Source: Escherichia coli
GTDB taxonomy: Bacteria > Pseudomonadota > Gammaproteobacteria > Enterobacterales > Enterobacteriaceae
DNA: 64,000 nucleotides
Assembly (NCBI RefSeq): GCF_003334815.1
Contig: NZ_QOWO01000005.1
Direction: 5' to 3' (one strand)
The position numbers and the translations under genes are program-made. This document shows positions 42,590 to 43,204 of the stretch, piece by piece. The notes beneath the pieces were generated by a model that was given only the letters and a program-made list of their open reading frames with translations, was not told the origin of the DNA and did not search any database. Numbering within the stretch: position 1 is the stretch's first letter; each line of letters starts with the position of its first letter.

Positions 42590-43204
42590 GATTGTCTGCT
42601 CCCCTGTCTTGTTATGGGAGCAGTATTCAGGAATAAAAACATTCATTAAAAGAATTAGTCGTTATCGCACAGATGATTTTATTCTTAGCAAAAAAACGGC
42701 TAAGGAAAGATTAAATATGCAATTACTCCGTTCTAACAATTGGGAAAATTACTACACTTCATTTTAGTGATGCATAAACAACCACATTACGAGATTTATT
42801 ACTTCATTATTTCTATCAATATCAATACATATAATAAAACTATTATATTCGCATTGTATATATCACTGTATCATTCTCAATCACTCGCATATTACATTCA
42901 CATAATGTATATAAACAATGCTTGTTCACAGAACATATTTTTTAAATGCAATTAATTGACAAACTAAATCACATCTAAATACAATGTATAAAACAAAATA
43001 ACTATACATACCAAACATACAAACACTTAACATATGAATTGCATAGAAACATTACCCAGTCGAACCCACGGGTCTGAAAGCCCTTGCTTTTCAGTTATTA
43101 GCAACATTTAACATTTATAAATTAACATCTGGCTGCGCCAGAGATTACGTCTCTGAGTGCATCGTTGTGCTTGTAGTATAATAAATAAAATGGAGTGTCA
43201 TTAA

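Follow-up and report, generated by a model that had tools for sequence, protein, structure and literature searches.

The tauA-yaiS spacer of Escherichia coli: a probable composite control region bordering horizontally acquired genes

The region considered here lies in a 64-kb stretch of E. coli DNA (the window, analysed as a whole and oriented in reverse relative to MG1655), and separates two divergently transcribed genes. The tauA gene occupies 41627..42589 on the minus strand, with the A of its ATG at 42589, and yaiS starts with a GTG at 43205 on the plus strand, which leaves a divergent spacer of exactly 42590..43204 (615 bp). The GC content of this spacer is 0.303, with a low of 0.24 at 42744-43052, as compared to 0.517 for the entire window. 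The 614-bp GC minimum of the window falls within it, and 0.08% of all 614-bp stretches are equally AT-rich. No other divergent spacer between annotated genes of the window is as long, the next being that between yaiT and hemB (523 bp). The original prediction of an AT-rich divergent control region of some 600 bp is thus accurate in extent and composition, and the sequence string that was quoted for it is present at 42858-42917. The spacer carries 12 A/T tracts of at least 4 nt and has 2.5 times the TpA step density of the window. A search for repeats within the spacer gave nothing beyond short, chance-level ones, and a scan of 41500-44500 with Rfam covariance models yielded no matches at E <= 1.

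The spacer sequence is 100% identical to that of E. coli K-12. Published positions were converted with a map anchored on the published location of ykiC, in which the window coordinate equals 427,821 - x for U00096.3 and 427,045 - x for U00096.2; the latter conversion assumes an offset of 776 bp between the two versions. The window strain differs from MG1655 by the absence of IS3 from yaiT (36112-36115) and of IS2 from yaiX (45226-45231), and by a C at 43760 that specifies Gln186 in an intact 223-aa yaiS, where a T in MG1655 creates a stop after 185 aa; apart from these differences, the two are 99.96-99.98% identical. The gene that served as the anchor, ykiC, encodes a small protein of 39 aa at U00096.3 383,960-384,079 (VanOrsdel 2018), corresponding to window 43742..43861 on the minus strand, which places it within the 3' portion of the intact yaiS reading frame, in antisense orientation. 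Just downstream of it, at window 43707 on the minus strand, lies a Cappable-seq start site (U00096.2 383,338).

On the tauA side of the spacer, the following elements can be distinguished.

42590..42615, minus strand: 5' leader of tauA, 26 nt, with Shine-Dalgarno sequence GGGGAG at 42604..42599
42616..42730, minus strand: tauA promoter module, delimited by family-wide homology in register
42627..42622, minus strand: tauA -10 hexamer AATACT (motif match)
~42650..42644, minus strand: weak tauA -35, best match 3/6 (motif match)
42684..42673 and 42642..42631, minus strand: inverted repeat GAATAAAATCAT/ATGTTTTTATTC in the promoter module
42703..42685, minus strand: dyad TTAGC-N9-GCTAA in the promoter module

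A transcription start site of tauA was mapped by Cappable-seq at U00096.2 384,430 on the K-12 plus strand (Ettwiller 2016, supplement). This position converts to the A at window 42615, 26 nt before the tauA ATG, and it is the only tauA-sense start site that Cappable-seq reports in the spacer. The same nucleotide, which lies 7 nt downstream of the -10 hexamer, had been predicted as the start site from the sequence. The leader is identical in the K-12 type, in hap2, in E. whittamii and in O157. Activation of tauABCD by Cbl, with involvement of CysB, is documented in the RegulonDB-based literature, which bears out the earlier claim of CysB/Cbl dependence, and the poor -35 is as expected for a promoter that depends on an activator. 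The placing of the tauABCD promoter within the spacer likewise agrees with the start site at 42615 and with the conserved upstream module of about 130 nt. In its weak -35, usable -10 and upstream sites for LysR-type activators, the spacer resembles the known Cbl/CysB-dependent promoters of sulfate starvation (tauABCD, ssuEADCB), but the K-12 allele differs in having only about 50% identity to the family-wide consensus upstream of the -10. The footprint of Cbl reportedly extends from -112 to -68 of tauA, which presumably corresponds to 42683..42727, a putative site that contains the TTAGC-N9-GCTAA dyad.

The evolutionary background of this promoter was examined by comparing TauA loci from 80 species. 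The ~130 nt upstream of the tauA ATG form a module that is conserved in Escherichia, Citrobacter, Klebsiella, Enterobacter and other genera, with a family-wide sequence ...TTGCCGnTTTTTTTCTAAAAACGCTTTGTTCTTAnCAAGAnnTTTTAATTCCTTTATCAAA...AAATACTG... This ancestral form is carried by O157:H7 and by the empty-site strain Ecol_743, whereas a diverged version is found in the K-12 type, in a second E. coli type termed hap2 (e.g. YDC107), and in E. whittamii. The K-12 and O157 modules can be aligned without gaps and in register with 48 identities over 102 positions, as compared to 27.7 +/- 4.4 for shuffled sequences (z = 4.7). In the 72 nt that precede the -10, the K-12 sequence matches that of any other genus at 35-41 positions, whereas Citrobacter and E. 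albertii agree with the O157 type at 61-69 of these 72. The K-12 and O157 sequences become identical again exactly at the tauA -10, and the tauA coding DNA is 96-97% identical between strains, as opposed to about 50% upstream of the -10. When a donor of the K-12-type promoter was sought among the 80 TauA loci, only that of E. whittamii was found to resemble it. A survey of complete E. coli genomes (n=5,426) revealed a full K-12-like or hap2 spacer in 4,255 and the ancestral tauA promoter in 1,073, of which 451 had an O157-type neighbourhood. Judged from these alignments, K-12 carries a strongly diverged tauA promoter allele; about 80% of the strains are K-12-like and about 20%, including O157:H7, have the ancestral allele.

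The divergent allele is part of a larger replacement.

42628..46500: replacement segment, in the place of 164 bp of the empty site (tauA, 305 bp, frmR; strain Ecol_743, locus L085)

The segment contains the diverged tauA upstream module, an AT-rich core and the yaiS-yaiP-yaiX-yaiO genes, a surface-sugar cluster. These encode an LmbE/PIG-L-type deacetylase, a PgaC/IcaA-like GT2 glycosyltransferase, a hexapeptide acetyltransferase and the YaiO outer-membrane barrel. Among the 80 species, yaiS, yaiP and yaiO adjoin tauA in only one besides E. coli, which is again E. whittamii, and the cluster is missing beside tauA in O157 and in empty-site E. coli. Since 42628..46500 as a whole replaces 164 bp of the empty site, the K-12-type Cbl/CysB module, the core and yaiS-yaiO can be regarded as one acquired segment.

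Three structural types occur upstream of tauA in E. coli, of which the first has the yaiS-yaiO cluster. In the second, represented by O157:H7 (locus L003, 5303-10038) and O55:H7, another island is present, with genes for a response regulator, a MASE1 histidine kinase, a UhpC-like protein and an ABC transporter, and in the third, that of Ecol_743 (L085, 4975-5279), tauA faces frmR across 305 bp with a REP-like element. The spacer has also received insertion sequences. E. coli B (NEBExpress) carries IS1 at 42699/42700, accompanied by the loss of yaiS-yaiP-yaiX DNA as far as 45577; this insertion cuts the Cbl footprint at its presumed position; strain H32 has an IS1 insertion at ~42798-42813, and in strain AF58 an IS1 insertion has duplicated 43151-43159. 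With three independent insertions in one spacer, this AT-rich DNA seems to be a hot spot for IS1. The yaiO gene (45643-46416) is found in 4,927 of the 5,426 complete genomes, as compared to 4,255 with the K-12-type spacer, partly because B-type strains retain yaiO after the IS1 deletion; up to six copies occur in a few genomes, and in 30 places the gene is on a plasmid. Within the cluster, an intact yaiX-like acetyltransferase reading frame with an ATG at 44931 shares about 150 nt with the 3' end of yaiP (44931-45082), its start being placed later in the annotations of other strains. At the other end, where the acquired segment has its right-hand limit (46500/46501), just upstream of frmR, there is a near-perfect long palindrome TATATACTATAGGGGGGTAT...ATACCCCCCTATAGTATAT at 46527-46579, presumably the frmR promoter or operator.

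The middle part of the spacer has properties that were noted earlier in genome-wide studies. It has been listed as a promoter island, a term used for AT-rich stretches of at least 300 bp in which promoter-like sites are exceptionally dense and overlap.

42743..43051: promoter island 383994_309 (PMC3661553; coordinates converted from U00096.2)
42853..42880, minus strand: sigma-70-like site TTGAGA-16-TACAAT directed toward tauA (scan; predicted start site ~42846)
42956..42985, plus strand: TTGACA-18-TACAAT directed toward yaiS, 11/12 match (scan; predicted start site ~42992)

This island, listed as 383994_309 yaiS(-)/tauA(+), is one of the 78 promoter islands of E. coli in Table 1 of Panyukov & Ozoline 2013 (PMC3661553), where it is recorded as bound by H-NS in all compared ChIP-chip studies (Grainger, Kahramanoglou, Oshima) and as associated with genes predicted to be foreign by three methods. 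Shimada et al. (PMC3946193) reported a genomic-SELEX peak of the RpoD holoenzyme in the spacer, accompanied by an H-NS SELEX mark, and assigned to it the promoters TTGACA-18-TACAAT for yaiS and TTGAGA-16-TACAAT for tauA; a peak of the RpoS holoenzyme is also listed for the tauA-yaiS spacer. Our consensus scan finds the same two sites, at 42956..42985 (+) and 42880..42853 (-). Occupancy by H-NS, which was part of the original prediction, is thus on record in tables of two papers, from ChIP-chip (PMC3661553) and genomic SELEX (PMC3946193), and both the scan and the listing by Shimada et al. (PMC3946193) point to separate promoters for the two directions rather than one short shared promoter. The tauA promoter, H-NS occupancy and promoter-island status of the spacer are therefore already in the literature, and the feature as first described adds nothing new to what was published.

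The density of promoter-like sites in the spacer is 24-36 relaxed sites per kb according to our own scan (not PlatProm), which is 4-6 times the 5.9 per kb of the window. Dinucleotide-preserving shuffles of the same region give an equal number of sites (3 found, 3.1 expected), so that the excess over the window can be attributed to AT-richness. The tauA-ward site in the core has kept its -35, and its -10 varies (TACAAT, TGCAAT or TGTAAT). The tauA-sense Cappable-seq start sites include none in the core and none at ~42846, which is consistent with TTGAGA-16-TACAAT being constitutive in vitro and silent in vivo. A high-affinity 10-bp motif for H-NS reportedly reads tCGATAAATT. The spacer has only two matches to this motif, at 42950-42959 and 43114-43123, both of them weak, with two mismatches each.

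Comparison of related spacers indicates which parts of this DNA are maintained. Between K-12 and hap2, divergence at 4-fold sites is 11-15% in tauA-D and 3-5% in yaiS, yaiP and yaiO, and across the spacer it amounts to 13-17%. Since this matches the 4-fold rate of the tau side, most of the spacer appears to drift approximately neutrally. When three lineages (K-12, hap2 and E. whittamii) are compared, with a 4-fold divergence to E. whittamii of 23-32%, the spacer can be divided as follows.

42590..42615, minus strand: tauA leader, divergence 0%
42616..42730, minus strand: tauA promoter module, divergence 5-15% (K-12 vs hap2, 5%)
42731..42850: fast-diverging AT-rich block 1, GC 0.23, divergence 16-31% plus a 9-bp indel
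42851-42930: block with divergence 18-20%
42931..43045, plus strand: conserved 115-nt block, GC 22%, divergence 4-7%, even versus E. whittamii
43046..43135: fast-diverging block 2, GC 0.39, divergence 19-25%
43136-43204, plus strand: yaiS-proximal block, divergence 4-10%

In fast-diverging block 1, no conserved element was detected among the three lineages. The 115-nt block at 42931-43045 is under purifying selection, since it differs by only 4-7% where 4-fold sites differ by 23-32%. The two gene-proximal blocks are likewise constrained, as opposed to the blocks in between, which diverge at the neutral rate. It is present as a single copy per genome, in two alleles, and is not a repeated element. 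The TTGACA-18-TACAAT site within it is the best sigma-70 match of the spacer, and the block further holds an UP-like A/T tract and about 54 nt at the 5' end of the predicted transcript. Two other elements begin in this block.

42950..42959, plus strand: H-NS-like 10-mer TCAATTAATT, overlapping the TTGACA -35, two mismatches to the motif given above
42956..43069, plus strand: C-rich, G-poor leader stretch, with the most extreme excess of C over G in the window on either strand

The best 78-nt window of the C-rich stretch has 16 C and 2 G, and ranks among the most extreme 0.006% of all such 78-nt windows when both strands are counted. From its composition, the stretch may be described as rut-like and is a possible loading site for Rho.

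Closer to yaiS, three further elements are recognizable.

43139..43155: conserved 17-bp palindrome CAGAGATTACGTCTCTG, its centre ~42 bp upstream of the start site predicted for the TATAAT at 43177
43177..43182, plus strand: perfect TATAAT without a good -35 (sequence match)
43192..43195, plus strand: yaiS Shine-Dalgarno sequence GGAG, just ahead of the GTG at 43205

The palindrome CAGAGATTACGTCTCTG could be a transcription-factor site or form an RNA hairpin, and its position would suit a class II activator; to our knowledge, no factor is known to recognize it. The leader segment CACTTAACATATGAAT (43024-43039) is complementary to GGAGTGTCATTAAGTG (43192-43207), which covers the Shine-Dalgarno sequence and start of yaiS, and both sides are invariant in the three lineages. 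Such long-range pairing could occlude the yaiS start codon. The predicted fold of the putative yaiS leader is no better than that of shuffled sequences (z = -0.65), with no covarying pair among the lineages compared. The SMRT-Cappable-seq supplements make no mention of genes of the tauA/yaiS region.

These observations can be combined into one explanation, which we consider likely as a whole, namely that the spacer is a regulatory region of composite make-up, bordering a cluster of genes that was gained by horizontal transfer. For this explanation, the anatomy, composition, start-site match, conservation pattern and island boundaries are taken from the present analysis, and the binding of H-NS and RNA polymerase and the dependence on Cbl/CysB from the literature. 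The proximal ~140 bp would serve as the tauABCD promoter for sulfate starvation. This promoter, of the sigma-70 kind and with a -10 that is usable and a -35 that is poor, should fire from 42615 only once the LysR-type regulator Cbl, with CysB, has bound upstream. All DNA upstream of the tauA -10, including the diverged Cbl/CysB module of K-12, would have arrived together with yaiS-yaiP-yaiX-yaiO. In the core (~42731-43135), promoter-like hexamers are probably so numerous that RNA polymerase binds in vitro, and H-NS would coat this DNA in the cell, keeping the back-to-back TTGAGA-16-TACAAT and TTGACA-18-TACAAT promoters quiet. AT-richness, and not intrinsic curvature, would draw H-NS. Expression of yaiS-yaiO would most likely be driven by the conserved TTGACA-18-TACAAT via a leader of ~212 nt, possibly assisted by the proximal TATAAT.

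Other explanations have to be weighed against this one. The simplest is that the core is neutral, functionless AT-rich filler at the border of the island and that only two short gene-proximal promoters matter. This would fit the divergence of 16-31% in 42731-42850 and 43046-43135, which is at or above the 4-fold-site rate, the tolerance of IS1 insertions at three places, the loss of the region by deletion in E. coli B and its absence from O157 and empty-site strains, as well as the number of promoter-like sites, which does not exceed the shuffle expectation. We nevertheless regard it as unlikely, in view of the block at 42931-43045, which has stayed within 4-7% in three lineages where 4-fold sites have diverged by as much as 23-32% and in which the best sigma-70 match of the spacer (11/12) is found, and of the reported binding of RNA polymerase and H-NS to the spacer (PMC3946193, PMC3661553). 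The constrained block could also hide a small gene, either a small RNA or a 35-codon reading frame at 43033..42926 on the minus strand. A strong promoter followed by a conserved stretch in the predicted transcript would agree with this, and the 35-codon frame is open for at least 30 codons in all three lineages. Still, such a gene is hardly to be expected: the block has no Rfam match at E <= 1, the leader folding (z = -0.65) is unremarkable and without covarying pairs, and the plus strand has no terminator-like site. The 35-codon frame, furthermore, has no Shine-Dalgarno sequence, has mostly undergone non-synonymous changes and is interrupted in hap2 by a nonsense codon at position 31, and chance alone would be expected to produce frames of such a length in the spacer; with a substitution pattern that is non-coding, it was rejected as a gene. 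Two other small reading frames were also discarded, MNCIETLP... (from 43034, plus strand), which is frameshifted in hap2, and MQLIDKLNHI (from 42947, plus strand), which has a stop in hap2.

The manner in which H-NS is recruited and assisted gives rise to two more alternatives. In favour of recruitment by intrinsic curvature from phased A-tracts, as was originally proposed, are the twelve A/T tracts of the spacer and the fact that curved DNA is a classical target of H-NS. Curvature was calculated as bend per 63 bp from a wedge-model trajectory, with wedge parameters of the Bolshoy/Trifonov type; control sequences gave 147 degrees for phased and 2 degrees for unphased A-tracts. The mean bend of the spacer is 17.4 degrees, as compared to 24.6 for the window, and is below that of all 200 shuffled sequences, the 10-11 bp periodicity of AA/TT does not exceed that of shuffled DNA (z ~0), and the highest peak of the window, at 37746, is in the yaiT/hemB spacer instead of here. 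Recruitment by curvature is thus quite improbable, and the idea that the spacer is curved DNA is not supported by the calculation. Since predicted curvature and periodicity are both lacking, H-NS is most likely attracted by AT-richness (TpA at 2.5 times the window level) rather than by a static bend. According to the other alternative, Rho also keeps yaiS-yaiO off: the promoter at 42956-42985 would produce a long, untranslated C-rich leader that loads Rho, and transcription would terminate before yaiS unless both H-NS and Rho are relieved. Rho and H-NS are known to co-silence foreign DNA, and the stretch at 42956-43069 is conserved and unmatched in the window, on either strand, in its ratio of C over G. 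The argument is based on composition, however, and with just 20-25% C in an A-rich context, the participation of Rho is a doubtful proposition, though one that deserves mention.

The explanation of the spacer as a composite region at the border of acquired DNA can be extended to a joint reading, which we advance tentatively and as something that may well turn out otherwise: the tauABCD control region of K-12 would be xenologous and have come with yaiS-yaiO, and the 115-nt block would be a selected silencing/attenuation module. This module would consist of an UP/-35/-10 promoter overlapped by an H-NS site and a rut-like leader, and one may speculate that it keeps the acquired cluster off and insulates the Cbl-dependent promoter. 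As far as alignments can tell, the replacement of the allele is a fact. If the reading as a whole is true, sulfate-starvation responses that differ between the alleles, Rho attenuation and insulation might be expected, all of which is speculative.

The situation has features in common with several known systems. Horizontal regulatory switching, in which a promoter region is replaced independently of the downstream gene, has reportedly been found before. The tauA case is similar in that conserved coding DNA lies under a diverged upstream region with a break at the -10, but it differs in that a 3.9-kb gene cluster was gained along with the replacement and in that the incoming DNA brings its own version of this promoter module, homologous and in register. 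A literature search on regulatory switching at tauA gave nothing specific. With respect to promoter islands, the core of the spacer is entry 383994_309 itself, and the high density of promoter-like sites and the association with foreign genes were reproduced here; however, the island covers about half of the 615 bp, the tauA-proximal 140 bp being a conventional activator-dependent promoter, and one 115-nt block inside it is under purifying selection, unlike generic AT-rich DNA. Xenogeneic silencing by H-NS is resembled in that DNA of low GC content flanks an acquired cluster, in the reported H-NS occupancy and the strong binding of RNA polymerase in vitro, and in a core for which Cappable-seq reports no tauA-sense start site; the spacer differs in having neither predicted curvature nor a close match to the 10-bp high-affinity motif. 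The K-12 promoter is the one that has been characterised. Since it is a diverged allele tied to an acquired cluster, regulatory knowledge obtained with it may not be transferable to O157:H7 and other strains that have the ancestral promoter. The constrained block in an otherwise neutrally drifting core, on the other hand, provides a target for studying silencing of the cryptic yaiS-yaiO genes by H-NS and perhaps by Rho.

Elsewhere in the window, the yaiT/hemB spacer (37571-38093) is a second very AT-rich divergent spacer, with a GC content of 0.263 at 37677-37976, and it has both the top predicted curvature peak (37746) and the top promoter-like density. On these grounds, it would qualify as curved H-NS DNA more readily than the tauA-yaiS spacer does. 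The third-lowest GC trough is located at 27646-27945 (GC 0.267), in the region of iraP and a small hypothetical reading frame upstream of ddlA, as placed by the MG1655 offset.
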